Assembly (NCBI RefSeq): GCF_901765095.1
Contig: NC_044034.1
Span: 62,562,339-62,626,338, forward strand
DNA: 64,000 bases
DNA from: Microcaecilia unicolor
Taxonomy: Eukaryota
Reading direction: 5' to 3'
How positions within the stretch are numbered: position 1 is the stretch's first letter; the number at the start of each line of letters is the position of its first letter. The translations under genes and the position numbers were made by a program. The notes below the pieces were generated by a model. That model saw only the letters and a list, made by a program, of their open reading frames with translations, was not told where the DNA came from and searched no databases. Below are positions 751 through 36,673 of the stretch, in pieces.

Positions 751-3187
751 GTGTGTATTTCTGTAAATGTGTTGATTTTTTACATTGTTGAGATAAAATC
801 CTAATCTAAGATTGTGATCTGAACTAATACCTGTTTTGGAACTAGAGCTGTAATAGGGCAACGATATTGAGATTGTACCACTGGAAAACATTTTTGTCTG
901 TAGTTGATGCTTTCAATTAGTAGATTGTGGAGATCATTTCAGAAGCTTTGAACAGCATCTACACATGTCAATTGTTGTTTACCTATATGTACAATCTAGA
1001 AGTATAAATATAACTATCTTAGAATGCCACTGTTTACATGTATAGATGGCCCAGGATGCCAAGATTCAAAGCGGTTGTGTTAGGTGTGGTTTGGAAAAAT
1101 ATGCACATACCATATATACTCTATTAGAAGTCAGTGTCATGTAAAAGTCAAATTTTAAAACTAAAAATATAGACAGAAACGCTGTGACCCAAGTATACAT
1201 AGAGGCTCCCCTCCAGCCCTTCCTCCCTCACCTGGATCAGCACCTCTCTCTCTCTCTCTTCTACCTCCAGGATCCAGAATTTTTTTTTTCTCTCTCTCTG
1301 AATAAAGTTACATGGATGAGATCTGTTCAACTTTAAAACTTGCTATTTGTGCAGAACCACTAAAACAGATAAGTTTAGCTGCTATGGGGCTGGCTACTAA
1401 GCCGCATTAAAATCTTGCATTTTACTGCAGCTCAATTTAACATGAAAGTTACTAACTTGCGGCAACTTAGTACCAAGGTTAGTGACTCTAGTGATAATTG
1501 CAAATTGCTGTATTTATTTAACTTTACAAGCTGTGTTATTCTTCTTCCAGGAGTATTGGTCTGGTAGCACGTAGCCCAGTGTTCCCAGAAAGCCTTTCTT
1601 AAAGGAGCCAGTGCCTTTCTAAATCATTGCTGACCACCCTGCCCCCTAGTCAAGACCTCCAATTCCACCAGGACATACTTCCAGTCTGGATTCTCCCCCC
1701 CCCCCCTCACGTGTCACCCCATAGACTCTCTTTTCCTCCAAGAAGTCCACCCAATTCCCCCCCCCCCCATCCCACCACAGGCCTACCTCAAGAACTCTGG
1801 TGGTTTAGGGTTATGGGAACAGGAGCAATATCCAGGTTTTCCTGCCCCCTCCAGCACCAGGTTCAAAATGACACTAGTTGAACCCTAGCAGTAGTACCAT
1901 GGTAGCATGAACCTCTTGTAGTAGTACTGCTACACTACCACTAAGGTTCTGCTGGCACCATTTGGAACCCAATGCTGGAGGGGACAGGAGTGGCTGGAGA
2001 TCACGCCTACCCTATAACCGTAGGCCACCAGGGAGTTCTTTAGGTAGGCCTGTGGGTAGGGTTGGGGAGGTTCTTCTGTAGGGGTTGAGGGGGGAGGAGA
2101 GTCCATGTGCTGAATTCATATAGGGGTAGGAGGCTTTGGACTGGGGGTTTGGAGAGGAAGTATTCTGATAGGGTGGGATTTTTAACGGGAGGGGGGGAGG
2201 AGTTAAAAATTTGTAAAGATATTGGGCCATATGTTAGCAGCCCAGTGCTCCTAGACAGGATATAAGGCCAGCTTTGAGCAGGGATTATTTTTCTAGAAAT
2301 AATTAAGACTGTGAAGTACTTCAAGCTGTGTTATTCAATTTGCATAATAATGAGGCATTTTGTATGCTTTGCATTTCATTATGCAACCTTTGATGACTTA
2401 ACCTAATGTGCCTTATGGCAAAATAACACATGCTTTTGCTATTAACACACAAGAGGCAAATATGTGTTATACAGCTACCTTACTTAAAAAGATAATTTTT
2501 TAGCTAGCCCCAGAATGCCCACAGCTATGTGTAGGGTAATTTTACAATGGCATTTTTGCATGCGTATGCCAGTATACATGCAAAAATGCCGTTTATAAAA
2601 TTGCCTTGCATGTACAAGTAGGCACATACTTGTATGCAACACTGATGTAGGTGTGTACTGTGGCAAGAGTGGGTGGAACATAGTCAGAGTTAGTTTGCAT
2701 ATGTCATTTTTAAAATGCCTGAGATCAGGCCTATTATATGTATGTGCATTTACACTAGCTCTCGAGCTGTGTAAATGTATGCACATTAATTTTTCTCACA
2801 ATGTCTGCAGGATTTCTGCTAGTATTTTTATAAAGACACATAGGTTCCTATGAGCCTTTATAAAGTAGGCTACAAAAGAGGTGCCTGCTTGGCCTTCGCA
2901 TATAAACAACTTTTAATAATATTACCTTGTTAATGATTTAAATGATTAAAGTTATCTGTATAAGTAGCATTTTTTTTCAAATGCAGTCAACCACGCTGCC
3001 GACCGTATACGTGATTTTAAATATTGCCCCCATGATGCCCAGTTATTCATTTCACAGAATTGTTCTGGGAGGAATGAGGTTGAGGTGATTGTGATTAAAT
3101 TTAATTATCAAAATCTCAGGGGGAGGACCTGGTGATTTAAAAATTGAAGGCAAAAAAGGAGGTAAAAAATCCTCACGACACCGTGAA

Positions 3188-3822
3188 GATGAAACAAAAA
3201 AGTGAGGAGAATGGATGAGGATACCAACTGTTTTATATTTATTCACTTAAAAAATTCACTTAAAAAATTACATGTGCATAAACAGCGACCCGACACGGCC
3301 GTGTTTCGGCACAATGGCCTGCTTCAGGGGTCTTTATAACCTTGAATGATGTAGTTTAGAATGTTTGTTCCAAGGGAAATAACAGGAAACAAATCTCTCT
3401 GGTCTCCTCTCTTCAAAAATAATATATATGAAATATATATATTTTTTTAAAAACGAGCATCTAAATACTCCTCTCCTAAGAGTTATCGGCAAATTGTGAA
3501 AAAGCTTTTTCACAATTTGCCGATAACTCTTAGGAGAGGAGTATTTAGATGCTCGTTTTTAAAAAAATATATATATTTCATATATATTATTTTTGAAGAG
3601 AGGAGACCAGAGAGATTTGTTTCCTGTTATTTCCCTTGGAACAAACATTCTAAACTACATCATTCAAGGTTATAAAGACCCCTGAAGCAGGCCATTGTGC
3701 CGAAACACGGCCGTGTCGGGTCGCTGTTTATGCACATGTAATTTTTTAAGTGAATTTTTTAAGTGAATAAATATAAAACAGTTGGTATCCTCATCCATTC
3801 TCCTCACTTTTTTGTTTCATCG
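3188..3822. repeat. Perfect or near-perfect 635-bp palindrome (arms of about 317 bp, centre about 3505), flanked by a 16-bp direct repeat GATTTAAAAATTGAAG (3134-3149 and 3823-3838)
   Basis: Read directly from the sequence: 3188-3505 is the reverse complement of 3506-3822. The loop is AT-rich. This is a foldback-type element or a hairpin-forming duplication. Confidence 0.75.
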
Positions 3823-4124
3823 ATTTAAAAATTGAAGCATTGGTGCAAGGCTATAGGTTTGCTTAGAGTGCCAAATACCCTTGCACTAGCTCTGTGTATT
3901 CTTAAGTTGAATGATTATATCTTCAGGAGGTCAGGCGTGGGTTTTTTTTGTTGTTTTTTTTAGCCTGCCTTCACAGGGTGTTAATGGAAAAAAATCAGAA
4001 TTTTGAGAAAAACTTTCTACATACAAGGTCATTGACATTGATTATAACATAAGCAGATAAATCATACTGGTTTGGTAGTACTGTGCTAAAATGTGAAATC
4101 TTTAAGCAAGTTCTTGTTTTGTAG

Positions 4125-6090: not shown

Positions 6091-6395
6091 TTCAGTGGCG
6101 TACCAAGGTGGGGGCAGTCCACCCCGGGTGCACGCTGCTGGAGGGGTGCCGCGCGCCTGTCGGCTCCGCTCGTTCCGTGCTCCCTCTGCCCGGGAACAGG
6201 TTACTTCCTTTTCTGGGGCAGAGGGAGCATGGAACGAGCGAAGCCGACAGGCGCGCAGCACTCTTCTTCCCCCCTCCCCCCCAGCAGGTAAAAATGCACC
6301 CGGGGGGAGGGGGTGTCCTTTCGCCGGGGTGGTGGGGGTGTCGCACCCGGGGGGGGGGGGCACATTGGCGATCTGCCACCCTAGGAACGCCACTG
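6091..6395. mobile_element. hAT-like MITE (305 bp) with about 25-bp TIRs (CAGTGGCGTACCAAGGTGGGGGCAG / ctgccaccctaggaacgccactg) and an 8-bp TSD CTCAGCTT
   Basis: The TIRs are reverse complements. CTCAGCTT occurs at 6083-6090 and 6396-6403. The GC-rich interior has an additional 40-bp hairpin (6150-6255). The six-frame ORFs at 5922-6484 are artefacts of this element. Confidence 0.65.
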
Positions 6396-7835: not shown

Positions 7836-9557
7836 CCAGTTCTCCAGTATTTTCTGTTTCCATCAGGAAAAATGGACATGCATACTTTTCTGCTCCTGGT
7901 TCTGAGGCCCTGCTCCTGGCCAGTTAGTCAACTGGTCTCCCAGTCAAGCTTGGCGGGTAAAGGTCTAGTGGGAGTCATATCTGGTGGTTCCAGATCCCTG
8001 TCTCTGTTCCCCATAGAACCCTCCCCTCTCTGATTTGCCCTCTTCTCTCTCTGGTCCCGCAGAACCCTGCCCTCTTTGTTTTCCTCTCTGCTCTCTAGTG
8101 CTGCCGGACAACATTAAAGCGGTATTAAAAAAAAAAATAAAGAAAAAAGGGCTCTCTTTATCACAGCAGCTTCCTGGGACACGGAACAGGCATTGCAGGA
8201 CTGTACTCCTGTGCAGCTCTGGGACAGCCCCCAGTCGGGGGGCTGTGAGGTGAGAGGTTTTTCAGGGGTGACAGTGGACTGGGGGGTACCCTGTATTGGA
8301 ACGGCAGTGGAGAAGCACTGGGGGCCGATTTCGGCAGTTTGAAAGAAAAGAAAGGCATGATGTCTGCTCTCCTGGCGTTTTCTACCACGGTGGGGGAAGT
8401 GCTCCTGACGGTCAAGGACTGCAGAGGTTGGGTGTGGCTTCCATCTAGCATGCTTCTGTTTGCTCCTGGCCTGGGGCTACAGTTGAGTGGCTGCTTCTTC
8501 CATGGGCTGCGGCTCCCCTGCCTTTGGCAGTGCTGGGTCAACGCTGGGATCAGTCCCGGTAATGCCGTGTCCCTGCCTTATTTGCTTGCCCTCCTCGGTG
8601 TGCCTTGGAGGGCTGGCGTGCCACTAGTTCTAGTTAAAAAAACAAAAAAACAAACACCCTCAAGATAGTCGCGTGAGCTGGGCTGCTTGTCTCCATCCGG
8701 CACTTTGTCTGGGTTCTTTGGGGGCTGTTGGCATTCCTGGAGGTTTGCTCTGCTGGTCCCCTTTGGGTCACTAAGTCAACCCGTTGCACCTCCCCCCCCC
8801 CCCCCCCCTTTTGGACCACTTGAAGTGTCTGTGCCTTCTCCTGGTCTGTCTATGCAGTCGCCCTCTGGGGCTGCGGTAGTCGCACAAGGGCTTCAGCCTC
8901 TTGTAATTTGTCCCCGATGTGGTCTTCTCCTTGGTCTTCAGGGGTCCTTGTTTCTTCGTTGTGAAGGTCTCTGACCACCGGCAGTCTCTTTGCTCAGGGC
9001 TGCCGTGGTCTCTTAGAGCTTAGGTCACAGACCTCTCATACTTTTCGGGATAGCAGCAGTAGCCTCCTTTCTGGGGACATTTTTTTTTCCTGTATGTGTC
9101 TGTGGCAGCAGCCACTTCTATTCCACAGAGTGTACTTCTCTGCACCTCTAGGGTGTTTTTTTTCTGGAGAGTCTCAGCAGCTTCAGCTGTTTTCTCTGTT
9201 GAGAGTTGCAGATGCCTCCTGGTTTTCACCGGTACGGCAGTCTCCTCTCTTTGGGATTGCGGGCGCCTCCTGGGCTTTGCAGCCTTGGCAGTCTCCCCTC
9301 TGCAGAGTTGCAGATGCCTTTGGGGCTGCACTGCTGCGGCAGTCTCCTTGCTTCTGAGTGGCGTACCTCTCCTGGTCCTCTCGGCCACAGCAGCCTCCTT
9401 TTGGGTGGAGTTGCAGATGCCTAGGGGCATCACAGCTGCGGCAGTCTCCTCTTCGGAATTGCAGACGCCTATAGGGCTTCATAGCCACAGCAATCTCCTA
9501 TATGAAGTTGCAGACACCTCCCGGGCGTCACAGCCATGGCAGTCTCCTCCTTTGGAG

Positions 9558-9745
9558 TAGCCTAGTGGTTAGTGCAGCGGACTTTGATACTAGTGAACTG
9601 GGTTCAATTCCCAGTGCAGCTTCTTGTGACTCTGGGAAAGTCACTTAACCCTCCATTGTCCCAGGTACAATAAGAACCTGTATATACTATGTAAACCGCT
9701 TTGAATGTAGTTGCAAAATCCACAGAAAGGCGGTATATCTGGTAC
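9558..9745 (+). mobile_element. tRNA-derived SINE copy (A-box/B-box GGTTCAATTCCCAG, core CTTGTGACTCTGGGAAAGTCACTTAACCCTCCATTG, LINE-like tail)
   Basis: It has a tRNA-like head with a B-box-like GGTTCAATTCC. The same family recurs at 10098-10285, 54075-54265 (+), 26560-26700 (-) and, diverged, at 49996-50112. Confidence 0.6.
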
Positions 9746-10097
9746 CAGTCCCTCCCTCCCGGTATTCACAGCCACGGCAGTCTCCTCTCTTTGGGATTGC
9801 GGGCGCCTCCTGGGCTTTGCAGCCTTGGCAGTCTCCCCTCTGCAGAGTTGCAGATGCCTTTGGGGCTGCACTACTGCGGCAGTCTCCTTGCTTCTGAGTG
9901 GCGTACCTCTCCTGGTCCTCTCGGCCACAGCAGCCTCCTTTTGGGTGGAGTTGCAGATGCCTAGGGGCATCACAGCTGCGGCAGTCTCCTCTTCGGAATT
10001 GCAGACGCCTATAGGGCTTCATAGCCACAGCAATCTCCTATATGAAGTTGCAGACACCTCCCGGGCGTCACAGCCATGGCAGTCTCCTCCTTTGGAG

Positions 10098-10285
10098 TAG
10101 CCTAGTGGTTAGTGCAGCGGACTTTGATACTAGTGAACTGGGTTCAATTCCCAGTGCAGCTTCTTGTGACTCTGGGAAAGTCACTTAACCCTCCATTGTC
10201 CCAGGTACAATAAGAACCTGTATATACTATGTAAACCGCTTTGAATGTAGTTGCAAAATCCACAGAAAGGCGGTATATCTGGTAC
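10098..10285 (+). mobile_element. tRNA-derived SINE copy (duplicate within the higher-order repeat)
   Basis: Identical to 9558-9745. Confidence 0.6.
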
Positions 10286-12666
10286 CAGTCCCTCCCTCCC
10301 GGTATTCACAGCCACGGCAGTCTCCTCTTCACAGTTGCAGACACCTCCCGGGCTTCACAGTCACGGCAGTCTTCTCTTTGGAGTTTCAAATGCTTCCCGG
10401 GCTTCACAGCCACAGCAGTCTTCTCTTCGGAGTTGCAGAGGCCTCCTGGGCTTCACAGCCACGGCAGTCTCCTCTTTGGAATCTTAGATGCCTCCTGCAC
10501 TTCACAGCTACGGTGGTCTTCCCTTCGGAGTTGCAGTCACCTCTTGGCCTTCGCAGCCGAGGCAGTTTCTCCTTTTCAGGATTGCAGTCACCTCTTGCAT
10601 TCACAGTCCCGGCAGTCTCCTCTCCAGAGATGCAGTTGCCTCCTGGTCTTCTAGCTGCTGTTTTCTCCACACTTTGGGGTTGCAGTCACCTCCTCAGCTT
10701 CACCATTATGGTAGTCTTTTCTCTTTGGAGTGGTTGTCACCTTTGGGCTTTCCAGCTATGACGGGCCTCAGTCTTCGGAGTTGCAGGTCACTCTGGTAAT
10801 CCGTAGTCTTGGCAGTCTCCCTTCCTGGAATCCAGTGGTTTTCTTCTCCAGGGCTACACACTTCTTGGGGGCAACATACAGCTCTGGAGGTCCTCACTGT
10901 TTGCAGTCTCCTCTCTTCTGAGTTGCAGTCTCTTCTCTTGGGAGTTGAGGTCCCAGTTTCTGTGGTTGCTGCTGTTCTGAATTGATGCCATTGGGGGTAT
11001 TTTCTCGGCTACAGGCTTCCCAGTCGGCTCCAGTAGTTCAGTGTTACTGCGGCAGTCTGCTTTCTCTGGAGTGGCGGACATCTTACAGCTGGAGGTTCGG
11101 TCAGCTTCTGCAGTCTTTGGACTTGGGATCTCGTTGGGAATGGCTGATTCATGCCACAGCGGCGGCCAGAGTGTTGAGCTCCTGCCAACACTTGGGGAGA
11201 GCAAGTTTCCTCACGGCTCAGCAACGTTGCTGTTGGTGAGGTGGATTTGCCTAATCCTCAGTGTGCTCATCCTAGAGCATGGACTCAGTGCAGGTCCTGG
11301 AACCTATGTCTGTGGCCAGGGAAGTGGTTCCTGGTGGGGAGGGATAGCTTCTGTCTATGGCAGTTCTTCCTTCTCTTTCGGTGATCCCCAGCCCCCCAGA
11401 GTTGACGCCGGCAGTGGCCTTGGTCCGCCAGGCAGGGCATGCACTGGGAGTTGTTCCCACAGCCGCCCTCCCTCAAGAGTTCCGCTTCCTATTTTGTATT
11501 GGGGCTGGCTACGGCATTCTTCCTTGACTTTCCATACAGAGGAGGTCCCTTCTGGAAAGAGGTTCGCCTTTGGAACCCCTTTCGAACTTTGTGTTCGGTT
11601 TGATTTGTCTGCCTTGTGCTGCGGACTCTGCCACATCTGTCCTTTGGCCCTCTCCGGAAGGCCAACAATATGGTTCATACGTTGCGTGAGGTGTTTTTGA
11701 TGTCTCTTACCTCTGGAGTGCGGATTTCTGGGCGCGGTAGTGCTGGGACCTGTTCCTCTGTTGCCGGAGGCTGGGGTCTCAGTTCTGTCCGTCCCTCTCT
11801 GCCTCAGTTGGTTTCAGTATTCCAAGTCAGTTGGTTGGCGTATCATCTGGTGTTTCGCCGGGATGTTGCATTTCGCCTCACTGAGGCTTCTGGGTGGCCG
11901 TTGGAGTTGTTTGCACTTTCTTGAGGCTTCTCCTTCCTTCTGATGTTTGGTTCGTCTGTTCAGCCCTTTTAGGGATGACAGAGGTTGAGTCTCATGGCGT
12001 CCTTGGTCACCTTTGCCTCTTGGTTGGTAGGGACGCTTACTTCAGCTGTCTCTACGTGCTGGATAGCAGCATCCTGTGCAGCATCCATCTTGTTGGCCCG
12101 GTGGCTTTTGGCAGAGCAGCAACATGGTTGTTATTGTATGCGTTTGCTGGGCTTCTCAGTGGATATTGTGGCCGTTCGGCGGGGGTGGTCAGGGCTTCGG
12201 TTCTCCAGGCAGCGGAGCTGGGGTCCCACCCTGTTAGGATTGCTTTTGAATATCCCATGTGTCCTGGAATTGTGGGAAGTAACATAATGAAGGAGAAATT
12301 AGGGCTTACCTGATGATAATTTTCTTTCCATTAGTTCTTCACAGTATTCCAGGAGCCCACCCCTGGACCTGTTTTGGTGGCAGGCTTTACAGCTTATGCA
12401 CGGGCTGTCACTCTTTTGTCTATCTCTAAAGATACCGGGGACCTTCCGAGAGTCCAATTGTTTGGTCGTTTACAGTTGTAGAGGTTTTTACATAAGTACA
12501 TAAGTACATAAGTAGTGCCATACTGGGAAAGACCAAAGGTCCATCTAGCCCAGCATCCTGTCACCGACAGTGGCCAATCCAGGTCAAGGGCACCTGGCAC
12601 GCTCCCTAAACGTAAAAACATTCCAGACAAGTTATACCTAAAAATGCGGAATTTTTCCAAGTCCAT

Positions 12667-14286
12667 TTAATAGCGGTCTATGGACTTGTCCTTTAGGAAT
12701 CTATCTAACCCCTTTTTAAACTCCGTCAAGCTAACCGCCCATACCACGTTCTCCGGCAACGAATTCCAGAGTCTAATTACACGTTGGGTGAAGAAAAATT
12801 TTCTCCGATTCGTTTTAAATTTACCACACTGTAGCTTCAACTCATGCCCTCTAGTCCTAGTATTTTTGGATAGCGTGAACAGTCGCTTCACATCCACCCG
12901 ATCCATTCCACTCATTATTTTATACACTTCTATCATATCTCCCCTCAGCCGTCTCTTCTCCAAGCTGAAAAGCCCTAGCCTTCTCAGCCTCTCTTCATAG
13001 GAAAGTCGTCCCATCCCCACTATCATTTTCGTCGCCCTTCGCTGTACCTTTTCCAATTCTACTATATCTTTTTTGAGATACGGAGACCAGTACTGAACAC
13101 AATACTCCAGGTGCGGTCGCACCATGGAGCGATACAACGGCATTATAACATCCGCACACCTGGACTCCATACCCTTCCTAATAACACCCAACATTCTATT
13201 CGCTTTCCTAGCCGCAGCAGCACACTGAGCAGAAGGTTTCAGCGTATCATCGACGACGACACCCAGATCCCTTTCTTGATCCGTAACTCCTAACGCGGAA
13301 CCTTGCAAGACGTAGCTATAATTCGGGTTCCTCTTACCCACATGCATCACTTTGCACTTGTCAACATTGAACTTCATCTGCCACTTGCACGCCCATTCTC
13401 CCAGTCTCGCAAGGTCCTCCTGTAATCGTTCACATTCCTCCTGCGAATTGACGACCCTGAATAATTTTGTGTCATCGGCGAATTTAATTACCTCACTAGT
13501 TATTCCCATCTCTAGGTCATTTATAAATACATTAAAAAGCAACGGACCCAGCACAGACCCCTGCGGGACCCCACTAACTACCCTCCTCCACTGAGAATAC
13601 TGGCCACGCAATCCTACTCTCTGCTTCCTATCTTTCAACCAGTTCTTAATCCATAATAGTACCCTACCTCCGATTCCATGACTCTGCAATTTCTTCAGGA
13701 GTCTTTCGTGCGGCACTTTGTCAAACGCCTTCTGAAAATCCAGATATACAATATCAACCGGCTCCCCATTGTCCACATGTTTGCTTACCCCCTCAAAAAA
13801 ATGCATTAGATTGGTGAGGCAAGACTTCCCTTCACTAAATCCGTGCTGACTTTGTCTCATCAGTCCATGTTTTTGTATATGCTCTGCAATTTTATTCTTA
13901 ATAATAGCCTCCACCATCTTGCCCGGCACCGACGTCAGACTCACCGGTCTATAATTTCCCGGATCTCCTCTGGAACCCTTCTTAAAAATCGGAGTAACAT
14001 TGGCTACCCTCCAGTCTTCCGGTACTACACTCGATTTTAGGGACAGATTGCATATTTCTAACAGTAGCTCCGCAAGTTCATTTTTTAGTTCTATTAATAC
14101 TCTGGGATGAATACCATCAGGTCCCGGTGATTTACTACTCTTCAGCTTGCTGAACTGACCCATTACATCCTCCAAGGTTACAGAGAATTTGTTTAGTTTC
14201 TCCGACTCCCCCGCTTCAAATATTCTTTCCGGCACCGGTGTCCCCCCCCAAATCCTCCTCGGTGAAGACCGAAGCAAAGAATTCAT
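12667..14286 (-). CDS. CR1-like reverse transcriptase ORF (539 aa, FADDTKLF active-site block and conserved C-terminal tail)
   Basis: The protein has RT motifs (PGPDGIHPRVL, YLDFQKAFDKVPH, FADDTKLF) and a C-terminal ...FKKGLDRFLKDKSIDRY end typical of CR1/L2 ORF2. Confidence 0.8.
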   Translation of the reverse strand: MNSLLRSSPRRIWGGTPVPERIFEAGESEKLNKFSVTLEDVMGQFSKLKSSKSPGPDGIHPRVLIELKNELAELLLEICNLSLKSSVVPEDWRVANVTPIFKKGSRGDPGNYRPVSLTSVPGKMVEAIIKNKIAEHIQKHGLMRQSQHGFSEGKSCLTNLMHFFEGVSKHVDNGEPVDIVYLDFQKAFDKVPHERLLKKLQSHGIGGRVLLWIKNWLKDRKQRVGLRGQYSQWRRVVSGVPQGSVLGPLLFNVFINDLEMGITSEVIKFADDTKLFRVVNSQEECERLQEDLARLGEWACKWQMKFNVDKCKVMHVGKRNPNYSYVLQGSALGVTDQERDLGVVVDDTLKPSAQCAAAARKANRMLGVIRKGMESRCADVIMPLYRSMVRPHLEYCVQYWSPYLKKDIVELEKVQRRATKMIVGMGRLSYEERLRRLGLFSLEKRRLRGDMIEVYKIMSGMDRVDVKRLFTLSKNTRTRGHELKLQCGKFKTNRRKFFFTQRVIRLWNSLPENVVWAVSLTEFKKGLDRFLKDKSIDRY

Positions 14287-14749
14287 TTAATTTCTCCGCT
14301 ACGGCTTTGTCCTCATTGATCGCCCCTTTAACACCATTTTCGTCCAGTGGCCCAACTGACTCTTTGGCCGGTTTCCTGCTTTTAGTGTATCTAAAAAAAT
14401 TTTTACTATGTATTTTTGCTTCCAACGCTAATTTCTTCTCAAAGTCCTTTTTTGCCCTCCTTATCTCCGCTTTGCATTTGGCTTGGCATTCCTTATGATC
14501 TATCCTGTTACTTTCAGTTGGTTCTCTTCTCCACTTTCTGAAGGATTGTTTTTTGGCTCTAATGATTTCCTTTATCTTACTGTTTAGCCACGCCGGCTGA
14601 CGTTTAGTCTTTTTTCCCTTTTTTCTAATACGTGGAATATATTTGTCCTGAACCTCCAGGATGGTGTTTTTAAACAGCATCCACGCCTGATGCAAGTTTT
14701 TTACTCTGCGAGCTGCTCCTTTCAGTCTTTTTTTCACCATTTTTCTCAT
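14216..14749 (-). pseudogene. Upstream part of CR1 ORF2 (linker between EN and RT) in a different frame
   Basis: It overlaps the RT ORF by about 70 nt in another frame, so a frameshift has broken the single ORF2. The copy is probably inactive. Confidence 0.5.
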
Positions 14750-15502: not shown

Positions 15503-16339
15503 ATGCCGGCAAAGACCCCGCGTACTCAGAAAGGGCGCGGAACCCCCCACGTGGCTAAGATGGCGTCTGGAAAGGAGAAAGGAGAGGCGACCCAGAGTCA
15601 GGATCTGCCGGTGGTAGCCATACAAGACGCAGCGATACAAGAGATAATGAAGCACATGGCAGCAGTTCTGGATGACAAGCTGTCGGCGCTGCATGTCTTT
15701 ATGGACGAGATGAAAGAAAGCATGGCAGCACAAAGCACCCGCATACAACTGGCAGAGGAACGAATATCACAGCAAGAGGATCTGGTGAATAATGTGAGTT
15801 CTCAAATGTCTGCTCTGGAGAAGAGGTGTAAACTGCTGGAAGAGCGGGTAGAAGATCATGAGAACCGGAGCAGGCGGAATAATATCAGGCTGGTGGGAAT
15901 ACCGGAATCGGTCAAAGATAAAGAGCTCTGGGACTTGGTAGAAGTCTGGCTGCCGAAAGAGCTTGGGATTGAGTCAGAAGGGCAACGTCTCAAAGCAGAG
16001 CGGGTGCATCGGATCGGAGCGCTTAAAGAACATAGCAGTAAGTCATGCCCGGTAATTGCTCGTATTCTCAACTATGCTGAGAAAGCCCAGCTGATGGAAA
16101 AGTATCGCCAGAAGAGAACCCTGACTTATCAGGGGACAGGCATGCTGATGTTTCAAGATTTCTCGCCGCGGGTGTCAGAGCTAAGAAAACGAGTGTCTCC
16201 ATACTGCTCTCAGCTCTACAACAAAGGGATCCGGTTCTCGCTGCAGTACCCAGCAAAGGTGAGAGTGCTGCATGAAGGTCGTGTTCTATTCATGGAGCAG
16301 CCAGAAGAATTGCGCTCATTTCTGGAGCGGTTGCAGTGA
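15503..16339 (+). CDS. L1 ORF1 protein (278 aa), nucleic-acid-binding chaperone with a coiled-coil N-terminal half
   Basis: It lies upstream of ORF2 in the same element. It has a heptad-rich segment (LSALHVFMDEMKESMAAQSTRIQLAEERISQQEDLVNNVSSQMSALEKRCKLLEERVEDHENRSRRNNIRLVGIPE), followed by a C-terminal RRM-like or CTD-like region typical of L1 ORF1p. Confidence 0.8.
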   Translation: MPAKTPRTQKGRGTPHVAKMASGKEKGEATQSQDLPVVAIQDAAIQEIMKHMAAVLDDKLSALHVFMDEMKESMAAQSTRIQLAEERISQQEDLVNNVSSQMSALEKRCKLLEERVEDHENRSRRNNIRLVGIPESVKDKELWDLVEVWLPKELGIESEGQRLKAERVHRIGALKEHSSKSCPVIARILNYAEKAQLMEKYRQKRTLTYQGTGMLMFQDFSPRVSELRKRVSPYCSQLYNKGIRFSLQYPAKVRVLHEGRVLFMEQPEELRSFLERLQ

Positions 16340-17335
16340 CAGAGTGCAATGTTAGAGTGGTTGAAGGGTGCCGGCTTGAAAACACCTTTGATGACACGTG
16401 GAGTGCCGCCGGAGACATTATGCCAGGCAGGCTAGGATTTATTTCTTGTTATTTTTGACGTGCAGGGGATTGCAAGCAGCAGAACCATTAAAGATTGATT
16501 ACTGTAAACAACAAGGAGTGGAGCCCGGGGCATTCTTAAACGGGAGACATTGTTGATTTGGAAGGAGAGGCTGTTTGTGGTTTTTTTTTTTTTTTTTTTT
16601 CCCCAGCTTTATCTGGATGCCAGCTAGAAGACTGAAGACTCAGTGGGGAAGTTGTGAGTTGCCTGGGGACGATTTGTAATTTAAAGAGGCTTGTTGCAGT
16701 GAAGCCTGTGTTCTTTTTTATAGGCTGCACGAGGGAGAGAGAGAGAGAGAAAAAAAAGGAACACAATGGACTATAGTTTGAACAAGTTTGGAGGGGTACT
16801 GTTATTTGTATAATTTGCCTCTGATGGGATCGTTTTACTTTTCTGCTGTCGTATTGGGGGAGTTGAAGGGAAAATGTTGAAACGGGTGGTGGGTGTTTAA
16901 GAAAGGGAAATGCAGCGCTCAGGCAAGCTGAGGATCCTTTTCAGGGGGGGGGAGGGGAGCAGCTTTCTCTTAGGGGAGGGTTGTAACACTGGTTGTTCTA
17001 AAGGGGAGGGTGGGAAGGGACTTGAGGGTGTGGACACAGGTAGGGGGGAAGGGGGATGGGAGGGGAGAAGTGGGAGGAAGGAGCTATTTGACTGGATGGA
17101 GTGAATGGTACACAGAGTGTGGATGTAGCAAACGAAGGGAGGGACAGGGATGGGAAAGAGAGGGAGGGGAGGGGGAGGGGCTGGGGTGGGGGGAAGGCTC
17201 CTGGAGAAATAAGGAATACTGTTACATGGAGGAGATTGGTACCGAGGCAACACCTGGAAAGGGAGGGGGTGGTGAGCTGGGACATCACCCCTTGTTCTCG
17301 GACATAAGGCTGCATATCGCCTTTCGATCTGACAG
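16340..17335 (+). other. L1 inter-ORF spacer (about 1 kb) containing (T)22, (GA)n and GGGAGG-rich low-complexity DNA
   Basis: It lies between the ORF1 stop (16339) and the ORF2 start (17336). ORFs 16897-17384 on both strands are low-complexity artefacts. Confidence 0.6.
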
Positions 17336-20300
17336 ATGGGTAGTTTGAGAATAGGATCATTAAATGTTGATGGTATTCACTCACCGGTTAAGCGGACTAA
17401 AATTTTGGCATACTGTAATAAAATGAAAGTTGATGTGATGTTTTTACAGGAGACTCATCTCTCACAACAAGAACATCGGAAGTTACAAAAAGGGTGGGTT
17501 GGGGAGGTAGTGTCATCTTCCTTTAATAACAGACAAAGGGGGGTGGTTATATTATTCCATAGAAGGCACCATGTTAGCATGCATAAATTAGTACAAGACC
17601 CAGAGGGTCGGTTTGTCATATGGTGGGGAGAGTTTGCAGGGCAGAGGGTGGCCTTATGCTCCATATATGCGCCAAATGTATATTCCCATTCTTTCTTTTC
17701 TGGTCTTTTAGCTCATTTGGTATCAGTTAGTGGGTACAAATTGGTGCTGGGGGGAGATTTTAATATTACTGCAGACCCCTTGATAGATTGCAAGCCAGCA
17801 AAGCCGCGGCCTCCAGCATGGAAAGATAAAGGGATTAACTTTCTAGTACAAGAGCTAGGGCTCCTGGATATCTGGCGGATCTTACATCCAGAATCATATG
17901 ACTACACTTTTTTTTCTCAGGTACATGGGGTATATGCACGGCTCGATTATTTACTAGTTGATGCAACCCTTATGTCGAAAGTGCAGGCGGCAGATATAGT
18001 GGACGGGGCAGTGTCGGATCATTGTTTGATTTGGGCAGACATCCAGTGGCACCAAGGCAGTGCATCAAGGATGTGGCGTATGAATCCAACGTATTTGGAG
18101 CCTGAGTTTCGTAGTTTTTTGTTGAAGATGTGGGACAATTACCTAATGGAAAATGACCCGGAATCAGTAGACCCTATAACTTATTGGGAAGCGGGGAAGG
18201 CCGTGATGCGGGGGCATATTATCGCCTATGGGGCAAAATTAAACAGGGAGCGTAATAGTAGATTAATTGCCTTATCGAGCCATCTGCAACAGTTGAGGGG
18301 GAGGCATGTACGGCAGAGGGAAGACGAGATAAAAAAGGAATATTTGGACACTCGCCGGCAAATTAATGATATTTTGAATGCGCGCGCGGCTCAGGATATC
18401 AGCTTGTATAAATTTAATATGTATAGATGGGGGAATAAGGCGGGGAGATTGATGTCGACCCTGGTAAAAGGCAGAGGGGCCAAAAAAATCATAACGAAGG
18501 TGAGATCTCCTGGAGGGCAGGTAGTGGCCACATCTGAGGGCATCCAGGAAGAGTTTGTCAAATTCTATCAGGCACTGTATAATGCAGGAGAGACAGATCG
18601 GACCCAGCGGGAATTATTTTTTCAGAATCTTCCTTTACCGCAGTTATCGCAGGAGCAGAGAGATCAGTTAAATGCGCCGGTGAAGGGAGAGGAAGTACTT
18701 CAGGCAGTGAAACGCCTTAAGTTGGCTAAGGCCCCCGGTCCGGACGGCCTAGGGCCTGAATTTTATAAGATATTAGGTGCCAACGTAGGACCCCCTTTTC
18801 AAGAATTATGTCATCATCTCTGCACAACTGGGGAGGCGGGCGGTAGACTTACACATGCACACATAGTGGTACTCCCTAAGCCTGGGCGAGATGAGGAATT
18901 GCTGGGTTCCTACAGGCCCATATCGCTCCTTAATCAAGACATAAAGCTTTTTGCCAATATTATGGCAAATAGGTTGGGGAGGGTCTTACCTGGCCTGGTT
19001 CACTCGGATCAGGCGGGATTCGTGCCAGGCCGATATGCATCTTCCAATATTATGAGAGCCTTGACAGTGTTGCAGAAAGGGGGGGGCAAACCCGGAGATG
19101 CGATCATTACAAGTTTGGACGCGGAAAAAGCATTTGATAAGATCTTGTGGGACTATCTATTTTGGGTGTTACCGCAATTTGGTATCATGGGAGCTTTCTT
19201 AGGAGGAATCCGCGCTTTATATAGCCATCCCACAGCTCAGATATTAATAAATGGAGCATTGTCATCTGTCTTTTTCTTAAAGCGGGGCACACGGCAAGGG
19301 TGCCCGCTCTCCCCGATGCTATTTGTGCTGTCCTTAGAACCCTTTGCTATCAAAATTCGACAGACGGACAAAGTTCAGGGAATTAAAATGGGATCCCAAG
19401 AATTTAAAATTAATCTGTTTGCAGATGACATGCTTATATATCTAGATAGAGCATCCGTGACTGTTCCTATTCTTATAGACTTAATTGTCCAATTTGGGTC
19501 TTTCTCTGGTCTATGTATTAATTTTGATAAGTCTGAGGCTTTGCCGGTGTCCTCCCCTTGTGCGTGTAGGCAGCTCCACACGTTTCCCTTAGCTTGGTCG
19601 ACCGGAACTTTAAAATATTTAGGAGTGTATTTGCACGCGGATATGAGAGTGGTATATCGTCGCAATATACAGGACAAGCTAGATGGCATTAAAAAACTTT
19701 GCCACAGATGGAGAGATTTGCCCCTTTCTTTATTGGGGCGTGTAGCGTTAGTAAAAATGGTTATGTTGCCCAAGATTCTATACCCCTTACAGATGATGCC
19801 ATTTTGGATAACACGGAAAGATGAACTATACTATAAGGGGTTTATTGGTACTTTTCTTTGGGCGGGAAAGCGGGCCAGGATAAGTTTTGCTAAATTGACG
19901 CTTGCTAGGAATAAGGGAGGATTAAATCTTCCGGACCTGCGGTTATACAATGTGGCAGCGCTACTTAGGTGGATTTTTGAGCTCCATTCTGGGTCTGCTA
20001 AATATGCCCCAAAAGGTATCTGGCAAGGTGAGGTGCTGCCATATTCAGTGTTTAATAGTCTACAAGTACAGGGAAGCTCGAAAGGAGACCTCCAGTGTTT
20101 GCTTCAGCCTCTGAGAAAGGCCTGGAATTGGTGGCGGGGTGGACTGGGAAAGGCCACAGGACCATCTCCGTTTCTGACAGTAGTAGATAACCCCTCATTT
20201 CCAGCGGGTCAGGGGGCGTCGCGGTTCAAAGTGTGGGCCAAAAAGGGGTGTCGTTATGTGGGACATTTTACGGTGGAGGGACAGGGGATATTCCCCACAT

Positions 20301-21151
20301 TTGAGCAGGCTCAGAACTCTTGGAGCTTGGGGCAGGAAGATTATTTCCCTTTTCTTCAATTGAAGCACTATTGTGCGACCTTGTCTTCTAGGAAAGAGGG
20401 GGGGCCTAGTTTTTCGCGGCTGGATAAGATGTTTTGTCAGATGCCGAACGCTGCAAACAAATTGGCGGTATGGTATTCTATAGGAAGGGAGCAAAAGGAG
20501 GACTTCTTCATTGCTGGCCTGGCAAAATGGTGGGGTGAACAAGTGGGGGAGGAAATCACGGGTAACATGTTGGCAACCTACTTTGCAGCGTCATTTAAAC
20601 TGACAACTAGTGCAAATTTGCAGGAGATGCAGTTTCGGTTGCTACATGGTGCTTTTATAACAAGAGAGAAAGGAAAGCGGATGGGGCTTTGGGAAGATGA
20701 CACTTGCATAAGATGTAAACACAGCAAAGGCACCTTAGTACATACCTTTTTGGAGTGTACTGAGTTGTATGTATTCTGGAAAGGGGTGCTGCAAGTGTTG
20801 GAGCATTTGTTGGCACAGGCTGTAGAGTGGTCCTACCGGATTTTGCTGTTGGGGGATGAGTCTCAGTTGCAAGAACAGGGGTTGCAGCCATCTCAGGTCC
20901 GGTTTGTATGTGTAGCGCTGATGCTGGCACGAAAAACGGTATTAGCACACTGGATTTTGGAAGACCCGCCGGCTATCAACCAGTGGTGGACTAGAATGCT
21001 GCAGATGGCTAGATGGGAAACGGAACGCAGTAAGTCCACTGGAGGGAGAGGTCAGGCATATGGTTCTTTATGGAAGCTGTTTGAGGTACTGTATTCTGCA
21101 AAGAAGGAATCTCCAGGAGCGGGGAGGGGGGTGGGGGTTAGACGGGTATAA
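17336..21151 (+). CDS. L1 ORF2 protein (1271 aa): APE-type endonuclease + reverse transcriptase + Cys-rich C-terminal domain, uninterrupted
   Basis: The N-terminus has the EN motifs (LNVDGIHSPVKR, FLQETH, SDHC). The RT block includes FADDMLIY, and the C-terminal Cys/His-rich domain follows. The reading frame is intact. Confidence 0.9.
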   Translation: MGSLRIGSLNVDGIHSPVKRTKILAYCNKMKVDVMFLQETHLSQQEHRKLQKGWVGEVVSSSFNNRQRGVVILFHRRHHVSMHKLVQDPEGRFVIWWGEFAGQRVALCSIYAPNVYSHSFFSGLLAHLVSVSGYKLVLGGDFNITADPLIDCKPAKPRPPAWKDKGINFLVQELGLLDIWRILHPESYDYTFFSQVHGVYARLDYLLVDATLMSKVQAADIVDGAVSDHCLIWADIQWHQGSASRMWRMNPTYLEPEFRSFLLKMWDNYLMENDPESVDPITYWEAGKAVMRGHIIAYGAKLNRERNSRLIALSSHLQQLRGRHVRQREDEIKKEYLDTRRQINDILNARAAQDISLYKFNMYRWGNKAGRLMSTLVKGRGAKKIITKVRSPGGQVVATSEGIQEEFVKFYQALYNAGETDRTQRELFFQNLPLPQLSQEQRDQLNAPVKGEEVLQAVKRLKLAKAPGPDGLGPEFYKILGANVGPPFQELCHHLCTTGEAGGRLTHAHIVVLPKPGRDEELLGSYRPISLLNQDIKLFANIMANRLGRVLPGLVHSDQAGFVPGRYASSNIMRALTVLQKGGGKPGDAIITSLDAEKAFDKILWDYLFWVLPQFGIMGAFLGGIRALYSHPTAQILINGALSSVFFLKRGTRQGCPLSPMLFVLSLEPFAIKIRQTDKVQGIKMGSQEFKINLFADDMLIYLDRASVTVPILIDLIVQFGSFSGLCINFDKSEALPVSSPCACRQLHTFPLAWSTGTLKYLGVYLHADMRVVYRRNIQDKLDGIKKLCHRWRDLPLSLLGRVALVKMVMLPKILYPLQMMPFWITRKDELYYKGFIGTFLWAGKRARISFAKLTLARNKGGLNLPDLRLYNVAALLRWIFELHSGSAKYAPKGIWQGEVLPYSVFNSLQVQGSSKGDLQCLLQPLRKAWNWWRGGLGKATGPSPFLTVVDNPSFPAGQGASRFKVWAKKGCRYVGHFTVEGQGIFPTFEQAQNSWSLGQEDYFPFLQLKHYCATLSSRKEGGPSFSRLDKMFCQMPNAANKLAVWYSIGREQKEDFFIAGLAKWWGEQVGEEITGNMLATYFAASFKLTTSANLQEMQFRLLHGAFITREKGKRMGLWEDDTCIRCKHSKGTLVHTFLECTELYVFWKGVLQVLEHLLAQAVEWSYRILLLGDESQLQEQGLQPSQVRFVCVALMLARKTVLAHWILEDPPAINQWWTRMLQMARWETERSKSTGGRGQAYGSLWKLFEVLYSAKKESPGAGRGVGVRRV

Positions 21152-23175: not shown

Positions 23176-23940
23176 GTAGGTACAAAGTAAATCTTCTCTT
23201 TCTGAGTAAAGGATCATGGATTTGATATACTGCCTTTGTGGTACAGTCAGTGGTTTACATTTATTATAAAACAATGACAGTGGCTCCCTTAACTGTATAT
23301 GTTCACTGTGGGACCTCAGATAGTATCCACTTATATTATAAATCAGCTCCCACTATCTTCTGTCAGTGTCAGTTCAAACAATCATTAATCAATATATTTC
23401 TCTTGGTGACCTCAGCTGTGCACATTACCAGTTTTACTGAATGGCAATGGGTTCTGCCCACCTTTCTTCATTGGTTCACACTATTAATGCATTTATTTTT
23501 TATCATTATTATTAACATTTAATTTTTGTAGTCAAATGCTCATCTTATATAGATATATCGGACCCAGGGGTTGATGTTACTGTCCGACATGCATGTTTCA
23601 CCCTTGTCAGGGCTGTTTCAAGGACTACCCCCTATGAAAAATACATAAAGATTAACTTCAACGGTATAGTGACAGAGATATAAAGTTAATTTCTCATACC
23701 ACCCCACCGCTATATACCGCTAAACGGTAGAGGGGATGTATATAGCGGTGGGGTGGTATGAGAAATTAACTTTGTATCTCTGTCACTATACTGTTGAAGT
23801 TAATCTTTAAGTATTTTTCGTAGGGGGTAGTCCTTGAAACAGCCCTGACAAGGGCGAAACATGCATGTCGGACAGTAACATCAACCCCTGGGTCCGATAT
23901 ATCTATATAAGATGAGTATTTGACTACAAAAATTAAATGT

Positions 23941-26340: not shown

Positions 26341-26559
26341 AAAAATTAAATGTTAATAATGTTAAAAAATAAATGCATTAATAGTGTGAACCAATGAAGA
26401 AAAGTGTGCAGAACCCATTGCCATTCAGTAAAATTGGTAATGTGCAAAGCTGAGGTCACCAAGAGAAATATATTGGTTAATGATTGTTTGAACTGACACT
26501 GACAGAAGATAGTGGGAGCCGATTTATAATATAAGTGGTTACCTTTATTATATGCAGGT

Positions 26560-30404: not shown

Positions 30405-31040
30405 TTCAGTGGCGTAGCTACGGGTGAGCCTGGGTGGGCACAGGCCTAGCCATTCTTGCCTCAGGCCCATCGTTTAGTGGCCCATATGGCCCCCAAAGCA
30501 CCTCAGTGGTGGCATCTCACGCTCCTCTCTCCCTCTTCTCCGTTCATAGCACGGTATCCCTCTCTGAAACCCCCATCCCCACCCCACCATCCCTCCAGGC
30601 CTATCTCAGAGCCGTCACTGGTGGCGATTCCTATAGGCAGCCTGCGTTGGCCCTGCAGGCTTCCCTCTACCGTGTCCCACCCTCGACGATGTCACTTCCT
30701 GTTTTTTTCACTGGCGGGGACACGGTAGAGGGAAGTCTGCAAGGCTAGCGCAGGTTGCCAGTAGGAATCGCCGCTGGTGACAGCTCTGAGATAGACCCCC
30801 GTGGGAGGATTCAGAGAGAGATGGCGGGGAGGGGGGAAGGAGCAGATGCTGGATCTGGGACAGCGGAGAGGGAGAAAGATGAAGATATGTGAGTAGGGGC
30901 AGAGAGGATGGAAGGAAAGACAGAGGGAGAGATGGATGCAAGGGCAGAGGGGAAGGGTATGTATGTATAGGGGTGTGGGCGGGAAGGGCCCACCCAGGTT
31001 AACTCTGGGCCCACCCAAAATGAGAGGTCTGGCTACGCCC
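30405..31040. mobile_element. Second, larger member of the same hAT-like MITE family (TIR CAGTGGCGTAGCTAC… / …GGCTACGCCCGTGGC) with 8-bp TSD (G)CTTATTT and an internal 85-bp inverted repeat (30590-30790)
   Basis: Its terminal similarity to the 6091-6395 element is visible. There are direct flank repeats gcttattt (30396-30403) and cttatttt (31041-31048). A solo right-end copy lies at 29590-29660. Confidence 0.5.
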
Positions 31041-32413: not shown

Positions 32414-32857
32414 TTGGAGCCTCGGTACGGGTTTTTTCTCTCCCTATTTTTGGTGCCCTTAGTCGCCATTACGAATTTTGATTTCGCCGGCGTGATTTTT
32501 CCGCCCATGTCATCGAAGTCTCCCAGCGGCTTCAAGAAGTGCACCCAGTGCGCCCGGGTAATCTCGCTCACTGATAGGCACGCGTCGTGTCTTCAGTGTC
32601 TGGGGGCTGGGCACCGCCCGCAGGCCTGTAGTCTTTGCGCTCTTTTACAGAAGAGGACTCAGGTTGCGAGATTGGCCCAGTGGAACGTGTTGTTCTCGGG
32701 CTCTTCGTCGACAACAGCACCGGAGTCATCGAGTGCATCGATGTCGGCAGCATCAAGACCTTCGACCTCGGCATCGACTGCATCAAGGTATCGACCCTCT
32801 GCATCGTCGGTACCGAAATGTCTGTGTCGGTGGTACCGGGACCTCCACTGTTGCTGA
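32414..32857 (+). CDS. DIRS ORF1 N-terminal Cys-rich (zinc-finger-like) segment
   Basis: CTQCARV...CLQCLGAGHRPQACSLCALL is a Cys/His cluster at the 5' end of the element. Its relation to the following gag-like ORF is unclear. Confidence 0.35.
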   Translation: MEPRYGFFLSLFLVPLVAITNFDFAGVIFPPMSSKSPSGFKKCTQCARVISLTDRHASCLQCLGAGHRPQACSLCALLQKRTQVARLAQWNVLFSGSSSTTAPESSSASMSAASRPSTSASTASRYRPSASSVPKCLCRWYRDLHCC

Positions 32858-36662: not shown

Positions 36663-36673
36663 ACTTTGCCTCT

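Follow-up and report, generated by a model that had tools for sequence, protein, structure and literature searches.

The segment at positions 3134-3837 of the 64-kb window (the whole stretch of DNA that was analysed) is best read, with a probability of roughly 0.7, as a single young insertion that arose when the machinery for retrotransposition of a Penelope-like element (PLE) acted on a short non-coding RNA template, either derived from a pLTR or supplied by a non-autonomous, retrozyme-like relative. Head-to-head PLE insertions of this kind are an already known and fairly ordinary pattern in the genomes of fish, amphibians and reptiles. The link to PLEs is drawn from the architecture of the insertion together with an RNA motif, and not from protein, since no RT/GIY-YIG ORF was found in or beside the insertion; nor does a GIY-YIG motif occur in any frame of the window. 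The features concerned are the following.

3134-3149, no strand assigned: left copy of the target-site duplication (TSD), GATTTAAAAATTGAAG, an exact repeat of 3822-3837.
3150-3187, minus strand: 38-bp one-sided extension ("tail"), made up of further 3'-terminal nucleotides that only the left (minus-strand) copy carries; its RNA-sense sequence is UUCACGGUGUCGUGAGGAUUUUUUACCUCCUUUUUUGC.
3169-3190, minus strand: 9-bp stem-loop, AUCUUCACG GUGU CGUGAGGAU, spanning the boundary between arm and tail.
3188-3504, minus strand: left arm, a 317-nt copy of the element whose 3' end is position 3188 and whose 5' end lies at the centre; 100% complementary to 3505-3821.
3287-3332, minus strand: hammerhead-like motif of the left arm, from descriptor scans and a covariance model.
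3505-3821, plus strand: right arm, a 317-nt copy of the element that starts (5') at the centre and ends (3') at 3821, adjoining the TSD.
3677-3722, plus strand: hammerhead-like type I motif of the right arm, gacccCUGAAGCAggccauugugccGAAacacggccguguC/gggtc, from descriptor scans and a covariance model.
3822-3837, no strand assigned: right copy of the TSD, an exact repeat of 3134-3149.
38833-38933, minus strand: diverged partial copy of the arm family, not inverted, with a hammerhead-like motif at 38869-38918 (descriptor and covariance model).

The perfect palindrome described in the original prediction is present in the assembled sequence, its arms being 100% complementary over 317 nt and meeting with a spacer of 0 nt at a centre where AAAAAG is followed directly by CTTTTT. 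The arms stand as predicted, with their boundaries corrected by one base: they had been placed at 3188-3505 and 3506-3822, for a length of 635 bp, where the actual total is 634 bp and complementarity ends exactly at the pair 3187/3822 (A versus G). Composition of the arms is 66% A+T, with a single tract of 86% A+T. An extremely stable hairpin had also been claimed, and the predicted fold of the single-stranded DNA over 3134-3837 agrees with it, at -391.7 kcal/mol compared with -61.7 +/- 6.0 for shuffles (z = -55). The centre of the palindrome contains a HindIII site (AAGCTT), a sequence that arises from any fragment ending in AAG (1/64); a restriction-ligation artefact at this site was considered and set aside, as it leaves both the TSD and the tail unexplained.

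The 16-mer is an exact direct repeat with only two copies in the window, those on either side of the palindrome, and shuffled windows contain a mean of 0.08 matches to it even with 2 mismatches allowed; neither the palindrome nor the 16-nt direct repeat is attributable to chance. Its right copy abuts the palindrome and its left copy lies 38 unique bases away (3150-3187), with no counterpart of this tail on the right side, so that from TSD to TSD the whole feature measures 704 bp; both the flanking repeats and the 38-bp offset had been recognized correctly at the outset. The TSD is 81% A+T and stands in the target context ctggt[GATTTAAAAATTGAAG]cattgg, with N-ATT following both of its boundaries. 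The insert ends in ...GTTTCATC and, on the minus strand, in ...CCTTTTTTGC. Arm and tail together form a 355-nt unit (3505-3821 followed by 3150-3187 in reverse complement). Its two 3' termini, ...GTTTCATC and ...CTTTTTTGC, lie 38 nt from each other; nhmmer with this unit returns a match at 3150-3503 on the minus strand, comprising the left arm and tail. The stem-loop across the arm/tail boundary contributes to an RNA fold of 3150-3200(-) of -11.3 kcal/mol (z = -3.9), which is equalled in stability by 1 of 200 shuffles, and this stem-loop is the putative proximal start site of reverse transcription.

PLE insertions are highly 5'-truncated, often with an adjoining inverted and likewise 5'-truncated copy that gives rise to inverted repeats, and their tails, of 30-40 bp, are found at one end only. 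The segment resembles insertions of Penelope, Poseidon and Neptune, such as Pen2a_Av of Adineta vaga and the Poseidon element "PAc" of Anolis carolinensis, in having an exact TSD of 16 nt around the whole unit, head-to-head 5'-truncated copies with a palindromic junction (3188-3821), a tail at one end (38 bp on the left, none on the right), an AT-rich target, a stem-loop at the 3' boundary and a hammerhead-like motif placed some 100 nt before the 3' terminus. It differs from them in lacking an RT/GIY-YIG ORF and a direct pair of pLTRs, only two inverted terminal pieces being present, in a junction without any spacer or overlap, and in a TSD longer than the 8-10 bp of the rotifer examples. The TSD-like interpretation first given to the 16-nt repeats is supported, their length and one-sided offset both matching descriptions of PLEs, and the suspicion that a mobile element or a hairpin-type inverted duplication is involved was right. 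The PLE protein of Anolis cleaves and extends both DNA strands; it initiates reverse transcription in a stem-loop, at two adjacent internal RNA sites whose interval becomes the tail, and prefers AT-rich/ATT targets (PMC11167929). Fish, amphibians and reptiles are among the hosts of PLEs.

By analogy, the empty site prior to insertion would have held a single 16-mer (ctggtGATTTAAAAATTGAAGcattgg / ...CCTGGTGATTTAAAAATTGAAGCATTGGTG...), at which the element endonuclease would nick the two target strands 16 bp apart. Each free 3'-OH would then prime reverse transcription of the element RNA, one strand at the distal and the other at the proximal of two internal start sites 38 nt apart, and the one-sided tail would follow from this use of different start sites by the two cDNAs. 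Both antisense cDNAs would extend until they reached the template's 5' end, the same one for each, and be joined end to end, either by template jumping of the RT or by blunt end-joining; the absence of a spacer and the perfection of the palindrome would result from this joining. Simple intramolecular fold-back priming is disfavoured, because the spacer is 0 nt, whereas fold-back needs an unpaired loop.

Since the arms are still identical, they have either been homogenised by gene conversion or belong to a recent insertion, younger than roughly 2-10 Myr if 2e-9 to 0.5e-9 mutations per site per year are assumed. No ORF of at least 60 aa with coding character is present in the 672-bp insert, which would at most be a copy that is 5'-truncated or non-autonomous and owes its mobilisation to proteins acting in trans. 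Metazoan non-LTR retrozymes, which are non-autonomous and PLE-dependent, carry type I hammerheads in units of about 170-400 nt (about 330-350 nt in salamanders), and the present element is similar to them in its short non-coding unit (317 nt without and 355 nt including the tail) with a type I hammerhead-like motif, in its non-mammalian, non-avian vertebrate host and in the high density of the motif, 6 in 64 kb. On the other hand, retrozymes are described chiefly from direct tandem arrays in which the hammerheads are canonical, whereas here the copies are inverted and the core is non-canonical. A circular retrozyme RNA as the template was set aside: the putative site of cleavage lies 213 nt away from the palindrome centre and does not coincide with the ends of the unit.

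The surrounding window is rich in transposons and of non-mammalian vertebrate type; it contains L1, CR1-like and DIRS elements, including an apparently intact L1 ORF1 and ORF2 (15503-16339 and 17336-21151) and a DIRS element with inverted terminal repeats (31968-38661), whose RT is closest to salamander and turtle proteins, with at best about 50% identity to those of Pleurodeles and Chrysemys. Derivation of the arms from DIRS terminal repeats was discounted, alignment scores falling inside the range of shuffles, and a tRNA scan found none, indicating that no tRNA-SINE head is present. Besides the palindrome, the arm family has one copy in the window (38833-38933), which is without an inverted partner and matches the arm at 81% over 48 nt by blastn and with a local alignment score of 48 (null maximum 29), and the 355-nt unit by nhmmer at E = 1.2e-5. 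Homology between arm and 38-kb copy does not extend significantly past the arm/TSD boundary into the flanks (20 of 300 and 193 of 300 shuffles score as well), on which ground the right arm was also rejected as a "native" sequence. A second head-to-head repeat was detected at 23323-23717 / 23738-23942+26354-26542, with 395-nt arms that are 96.2% identical, a 20-nt spacer and two hammerhead-like motifs; it was split by a later, L1-type, poly(A)-ended insertion (23944-26340) with a duplication of ATTAAATGTTA. This older, diverged structure (23323-26542) shows that head-to-head inverted repeats are real and long-lived in this genome.

The second repeat also bears on whether the palindrome was put into the contig by a palindromic chimeric long read (a missed hairpin adapter, a fold-back read or an amplification chimera) or by a mis-join that added an inverted copy of the arm. 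Identity of 100% over 317 nt with zero spacer is indeed how strand-turnaround chimeras look, and the tandem and inverted structures of PLEs are said to trouble whole-genome assemblies. However, a turnaround chimera would carry on into the 38 bp and the left flank, both in reverse complement, whereas the right arm stops exactly at the direct-orientation 16-mer and is followed by unrelated sequence; an artefact alone creates neither the 16-nt flanking duplication nor the one-sided 38-bp extension, the window has no N gaps, and a like structure that has diverged (to 96%) and was later hit by an insertion shows that such repeats are biological in this genome. We regard this explanation as unlikely. 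Exact-protein look-ups with two small ORFs, one across the left junction and one across the centre of the palindrome, returned no other assembly of the locus on record, and a look-up with the L1 ORF2 likewise returned nothing. Inverted duplication at the DNA level, by template switching at a break or stalled fork in which the 16-mer served as microhomology or was duplicated as such, appears equally improbable. Spacer-less palindromes can form by break-induced or replication template switching, and the lack of an ORF in the arms would suit such an origin, but local fold-back should leave one arm continuous with its ancestral flank, and no single ancestral order yields both 16-mer/38 bp/arm and arm/16-mer without a second 16-mer. 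Moreover, the arm is a member of a family of interspersed repeats, its flanks have no homology to those of the 38-kb copy, and its ends coincide with landmarks of an element, namely the hammerhead-like motif at a fixed distance and the boundary stem-loop.

Retroposition of a cellular or SINE-like RNA by L1, with a rearrangement of the twin-priming type, has in its favour the apparently intact L1 ORFs in the window and a 16-nt TSD that lies inside the L1 range of 7-20 nt. Yet there is no poly(A) or A-rich 3' tail beside the TSD at either end, the nick sites deduced from the TSD, GAAG/CATT and (other strand) AATC/ACCA, are not TTTT/AA-like, and the parts that twin priming inverts are different stretches of a single RNA, whereas the two copies here are identical; the genuine L1-type insertion at 23944-26340 does display a poly(A) end and a duplication, and we consider L1 a very improbable agent here. 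More improbable still is a foldback (FB) or long-TIR, MITE-like DNA transposon that excises and reinserts as a hairpin-forming unit, an option raised in the original prediction. Long inverted repeats between short direct duplications are what such elements show, but in this case 38 bp separate the direct repeat from the left inverted repeat, no internal region lies between the presumed TIRs, no transposase ORF is found and the other copy of the family in the window, at 38833-38933, is not inverted. The TSDs of DDE (cut-and-paste) transposon superfamilies are of 2-11 bp, a range that the 16-bp TSD exceeds.

Returning to the PLE reading, its RNA component is a motif present in each arm that comprises helix I, CUGAAG, helix II with G10.1-C11.1, GAAA, a palindromic helix III/loop 3 and GUC. 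In the right arm the putative cut would follow C3717, which leaves 104 nt to the end of the arm and 142 nt to the equivalent of the tail end; the distance corresponding to the former in the Anolis element is 85-92 nt (computed from PMC11167929). PLE hammerheads sit in pLTRs, and "dual" motifs on opposite strands, 100-700 bp apart, have been reported. A descriptor scan of the window identified five motifs against 0.02-0.08 expected, and for the scans that pick up the right-arm motif the expectation per shuffled window is 0-0.08 hits, a comparison to be read with the proviso that descriptor and structure were drawn up after the motif had been seen. A covariance model (R1) built from these motifs scores the right-arm motif at 63.6 bits and recovers an independent motif, the sixth, at 60843-60897 (39 bits, E about 1e-9), so that the motif occurs at four further places outside the palindrome, two of them in the older head-to-head repeat. 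Compensatory changes across families affect 4 of 13 pairs, in all three helices, and 94% of cells are paired, versus 20-33% in slid controls. Positions 3 and 8 change from C-G to U-A between families, and a covariation from C3-G8 to U3-A8 has been reported for PLE hammerheads.

Against the type I hammerhead core (C3 U4 G5 A6 N7 G8 A9 ... G12 A13 A14 ... U16.1 H17), every position matches except position 9, which in all copies of the motif is C followed by an unpaired A, in place of the expected invariant A9 and one extra nucleotide; this C-A also sets the motif apart from those of the PLE insertions compared above. Rfam hammerhead models give no match at E <= 1 over 3000-4000, and none at E <= 10 for the right arm and the copies at 38 kb and 60.8 kb, while the older repeat has only a partial, 12.8-bit match to Hammerhead_HH9, for which the gathering score is 52. 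Rfam at gathering threshold yields 0 hits in the whole window; sub-threshold "long hairpin" matches within 3000-4000, to plant miRNA precursors and similar families, were dismissed as generic hairpin scores. Predicted folding energies of the motifs are no better than those of shuffles, and metagenome contigs, when scanned with the motif family, contained 0 matches. A core of the form "CUGANN-CA-G" is nonetheless common to at least three unrelated repeat families in the window. It is conceivable, if doubtful, that this core is a functional and undescribed hammerhead variant of vertebrate PLE-derived non-autonomous elements; the spacer-less palindrome with its 38-nt tail would then directly record, in vivo, target-primed reverse transcription of a dimeric kind on both strands, with cDNAs from two start sites reaching the same RNA 5' end and being joined end to end. 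On this doubtful reading the perfect hairpin of 317 bp could also, if transcribed through, feed small-RNA silencing of the element family. Self-cleavage by the putative ribozyme with this recurrent, non-canonical core could be cheaply tested.

From the perspective of annotation, a striking perfect palindrome with seemingly "odd" TSDs can be read as the standard footprint of a PLE insertion, and such a palindrome does not have to be put down to a misassembly, to a new foldback transposon or to a curiosity of fragile sites; PLE-derived fragments are missed or misclassified by most pipelines. Very young head-to-head insertions record at nucleotide resolution the 3' start sites (here 38 nt apart), the stagger of the nicks (16 bp) and the junction (zero spacer), and for this reason they constrain the mechanism of PLE integration, in which both-strand priming has to date been seen only in vitro, with the Anolis element. 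The palindromes termed PATRRs, on human chromosomes 11, 17 and 22, are nearly or fully perfect over several hundred bp and more AT-rich, and are not known to be flanked by TSDs or to carry landmarks of retroelements. The present palindrome is like them in being spacer-less and in its potential for cruciform or hairpin formation, with breakage and central deletion to be expected, and is unlike them in its TSD, its retroelement landmarks and the more modest A+T content of its arms.

The feature at 3134-3837, a palindrome with its flanking repeats, most plausibly represents a recent head-to-head insertion of a retroelement of the Penelope-like (PLE) type, which is probably non-autonomous. The palindrome and its flanking 16-nt repeat are confirmed in the sequence and are not due to chance. 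The original prediction of a perfect 635-bp palindrome was correct as to its perfection and one base off in its coordinates: the arms (3188-3504 and 3505-3821, 317 nt each) are 100% complementary and meet with a spacer of 0 nt, giving 634 bp in total, and complementarity ends sharply at 3187/3822. The 16-bp direct repeats it described are exact copies of GATTTAAAAATTGAAG at 3134-3149 and 3822-3837, the only two in the 64-kb window, where chance matches average 0.08 per shuffled window even with two mismatches allowed. The right copy directly adjoins the palindrome and the left is set off, by the 38 bp predicted, by unique bases (3150-3187). The expected extreme stability of the hairpin was also borne out, the region folding as single-stranded DNA at -391.7 kcal/mol against -61.7 in shuffles (z = -55). 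The palindrome centre, 3504/3505, is an AAGCTT (HindIII) site; we judge it coincidental (1 in 64 for any given hexamer), though it should be kept in mind if the library used restriction-ligation steps.

Neither arm contains a convincing ORF. A search of the window for other copies of the arm, which had been proposed for the genome, yielded one further, partial copy, at 38833-38933 (-): about 100 nt are homologous (81% over 48 nt by blastn; local alignment score 48, where shuffles reach at most 29; E = 1.2e-5 by nhmmer), and the arm is therefore a member of an interspersed repeat family. This 38-kb copy is not part of any inverted repeat, and its flanks are unrelated to those of the arm. The best-conserved block of the arm has the layout of a type I hammerhead ribozyme, reading in the right arm, in order, helix I, 5' core, closed helix II with G10.1-C11.1, GAAA, a closed helix III that is palindromic, GUC, and finally the second strand of helix I.

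Hammerhead-like motifs in the window
3287-3332, left arm
3677-3722 (+), right arm: gaccc CUGAAG CA ggcc-auugu-gcc GAA acacg-gc-cgugu C / ggguc
23582-23625 (-), older inverted repeat, U3-A8 core UUGAAACA
23830-23873 (+), older inverted repeat, U3-A8 core UUGAAACA
38869-38918, 38-kb copy
60843-60897 (-), sixth motif, CUGAAUCA-gccc..gggc-GAAAC..., found by covariance model alone (39 bits)

A strict descriptor of this layout, drawn up, like the structure, after the motif had been seen, matched both arm copies and had 0 matches in 100 shuffled windows; a looser one (C3-G8 or U3-A8) found five sites against 0.02-0.08 expected, namely one in each arm, one in the 38-kb copy and a pair in the older inverted repeat. 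When the four distinct motif sequences are aligned, 94% of cells are paired, against 20-33% with slid partners, and both-sided changes occur in 4 of the 13 pairs, across all three helices; U3-A8 core covariation is reported for PLE hammerheads (Cervera and de la Pena 2014, PMC4209133). The covariance model built from these four recovered the sixth, independent site (E ~1e-9), which stands alone and represents a third family, again with 'CA' ahead of helix II. Indeed, in all six motifs position 8 and G10.1 are separated by 'C A'. PLE hammerheads are described with A9 and one extra nucleotide at this place; they also share a conserved G10.1-C11.1 and a palindromic helix III/loop 3 (PMC4209133). 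Rfam hammerhead models gave no match at E <= 1 across 3000-4000, and none at E <= 10 in the right arm and the 38-kb and 60.8-kb copies, the best Rfam result among the motifs being a partial Hammerhead_HH9 match in the older repeat (12.8 bits against a gathering score of 52). Motif folding energies were no better than those of shuffles. As this evidence speaks against a canonical hammerhead, we call the motif hammerhead-like and the ribozyme putative; its 'CA' core may mark an active variant or a relic. A scan of metagenome contigs for the motif family gave no matches. The recurrence of the 'CA' core is one of two mildly interesting points.

The older repeat is also head-to-head, pairing 23323-23717 with 23738-23942 plus 26354-26542 (395-nt arms, 96.2% identical) around a 20-nt spacer (23718-23737), and each arm bears one hammerhead-like motif, of a family differing from that of the 3134-3837 arms. 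Its right arm is split by an insertion of ~2.4 kb (23944-26340), which has a poly(A) end and a flanking ATTAAATGTTA duplication and is therefore a typical L1-type event.

Coding sequences in the ~2.4-kb insertion
23937-24692, L1 ORF2 C-terminal fragment
24949-25575 (-), CR1/L2-like ORF

The later insertion into the older repeat establishes that the genome really contains head-to-head repeats with this motif, and that they are old and tolerated there; the insertion itself also provides an internal reference for how L1 insertions appear here. Flanking the older repeat is a weak candidate for a 9-nt target-site duplication (TSD), TTTATTATA (23260-23268 and 26544-26552), which would leave an extension of 54 nt on one side only.

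Other origins for the palindrome fit less well. An assembly artefact is unlikely: a strand-turnaround chimera would carry on by repeating the 38 bp and the left flank as their reverse complement, and would create no direct 16-nt duplication. Local fold-back duplication at the DNA level seems equally doubtful, because one ancestral sequence could yield both junctions only if the 16-mer were present twice, and the arm belongs to a repeat family whose other copy has different flanks. L1-mediated insertion would account for the TSD length, but the feature has no poly(A) and no TT/AAAA-type nick site, and two identical copies would be left without reason, making this route improbable. The foldback transposon suggested originally can be set aside with slightly more assurance still: a TSD of 16 nt is too long and fails to adjoin one of the arms, no transposase ORF is present, and the family's second copy is not inverted.

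By our comparison, the combination of features at 3134-3837 is instead the published signature of PLE insertion. PLE insertions are strongly 5'-truncated and their hammerhead motifs sit in pseudo-LTRs (Craig et al. 2021, PMC8557442), while TSDs bracket entire units (Arkhipova et al. 2013, PMC3846280). Their hammerheads occur by thousands in coelacanth, Xenopus and reptiles, mostly in isolated truncated copies, with some paired on opposite strands 100-700 bp apart (PMC4209133). In purified form, the PLE protein of Anolis nicks both target strands and extends them, with a preference for AT-rich/ATT sites. Its reverse transcription begins within a stem-loop, at two neighbouring internal positions of the RNA whose interval equals the genomic tail (Frangieh et al. 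2024, PMC11167929). Here, the 16-nt TSD is 81% A+T with N-ATT after both boundaries, and a 9-bp stem-loop (z = -3.9) spans the boundary of the arm and the 38-nt tail. In the Anolis element, as we compute from published positions (+26, +111-118; PMC11167929), the hammerhead cut is followed after 85-92 nt by the start sites. At the present locus, the distance from the putative cut is 104 nt to the end of the arm and 142 nt to that of the tail. So-called 'non-LTR retrozymes', which are non-autonomous PLE derivatives of 170-400 nt, are described from amphibians and from other vertebrates outside birds and mammals, and the 317/355-nt non-coding unit falls in their size class. Neither the insert nor the rest of the window encodes a PLE protein, so the assignment to PLE machinery, to which we give a probability of about 0.7, rests on insertion architecture and a non-canonical RNA motif. 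This kind of insertion is already known, and the present one is a further case of modest interest.

The structure of the insertion is read from the sequence, and from it we infer the following steps. Staggered nicks, 16 bp apart in ctggt[GATTTAAAAATTGAAG]cattgg, would provide 3'-OH ends, each of which would prime a cDNA templated by element RNA. Priming from the plus strand would use the distal start site and so add the 38-nt tail, and priming from the minus strand would use the proximal site. Both antisense cDNAs would stop at the same template 5' end, and template jumping or blunt end-joining would link these ends into a spacer-less palindrome; the older repeat's 20-nt spacer would reflect cDNAs of unequal length. 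Intramolecular snap-back by itself cannot account for a spacer of 0 nt, as the turn of a hairpin has to leave some bases unpaired. The two arms, each with 7 CpG, do not differ at any of their 317 nt. For mutation rates between 2e-9 and 0.5e-9 per site per year, this bounds the age of the insertion at ~2.4-9.5 Myr, provided that gene conversion does not homogenise the arms. The other mildly interesting point is that 3134-3837 records, at nucleotide level, both start sites, the nick stagger and the zero-spacer junction.

The window is repeat-rich DNA, as from a vertebrate that is neither mammal nor bird, with 0 tRNA genes and 0 Rfam families above threshold in the window; its long ORFs are few and scattered, and all encode transposon proteins.

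Other elements in the window
12667-14749 (-), CR1-like LINE ORFs: 539-aa RT (12667-14286) and an overlapping 177-aa upstream ORF
15503-21151, apparently intact L1: ORF1 15503-16339 (278 aa); ORF2 17336-21151 (1271 aa, endonuclease and RT)
31968-38661, DIRS-like element: inverted terminal repeats (e.g. 32070-32224 and 38000-38154, 95%); gag, RT/RNase H and tyrosine-recombinase ORFs, 33068-37680

The exact 1271-aa L1 protein has no record in the public collection, and the best database relatives of the DIRS RT, only ~50% identical, are from a salamander (Pleurodeles) and turtles (Chrysemys). Tandem arrays of 49, 98 and 102 bp (73-80% matches) occupy a GC-rich, T-skewed stretch at 9267-10651, and a proline-rich 245-aa ORF over 9-60-bp tandem repeats (55977-56714) could be a formin FH1-like exon or low complexity. 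Four shorter, imperfect inverted repeats (6141-6266, 30598-30797, 52809-53002 and 61370-61541; 60-90-nt arms, 85-89% complementary, spacers of 6-44 nt) may be MITE-like elements or more truncated head-to-head insertions.
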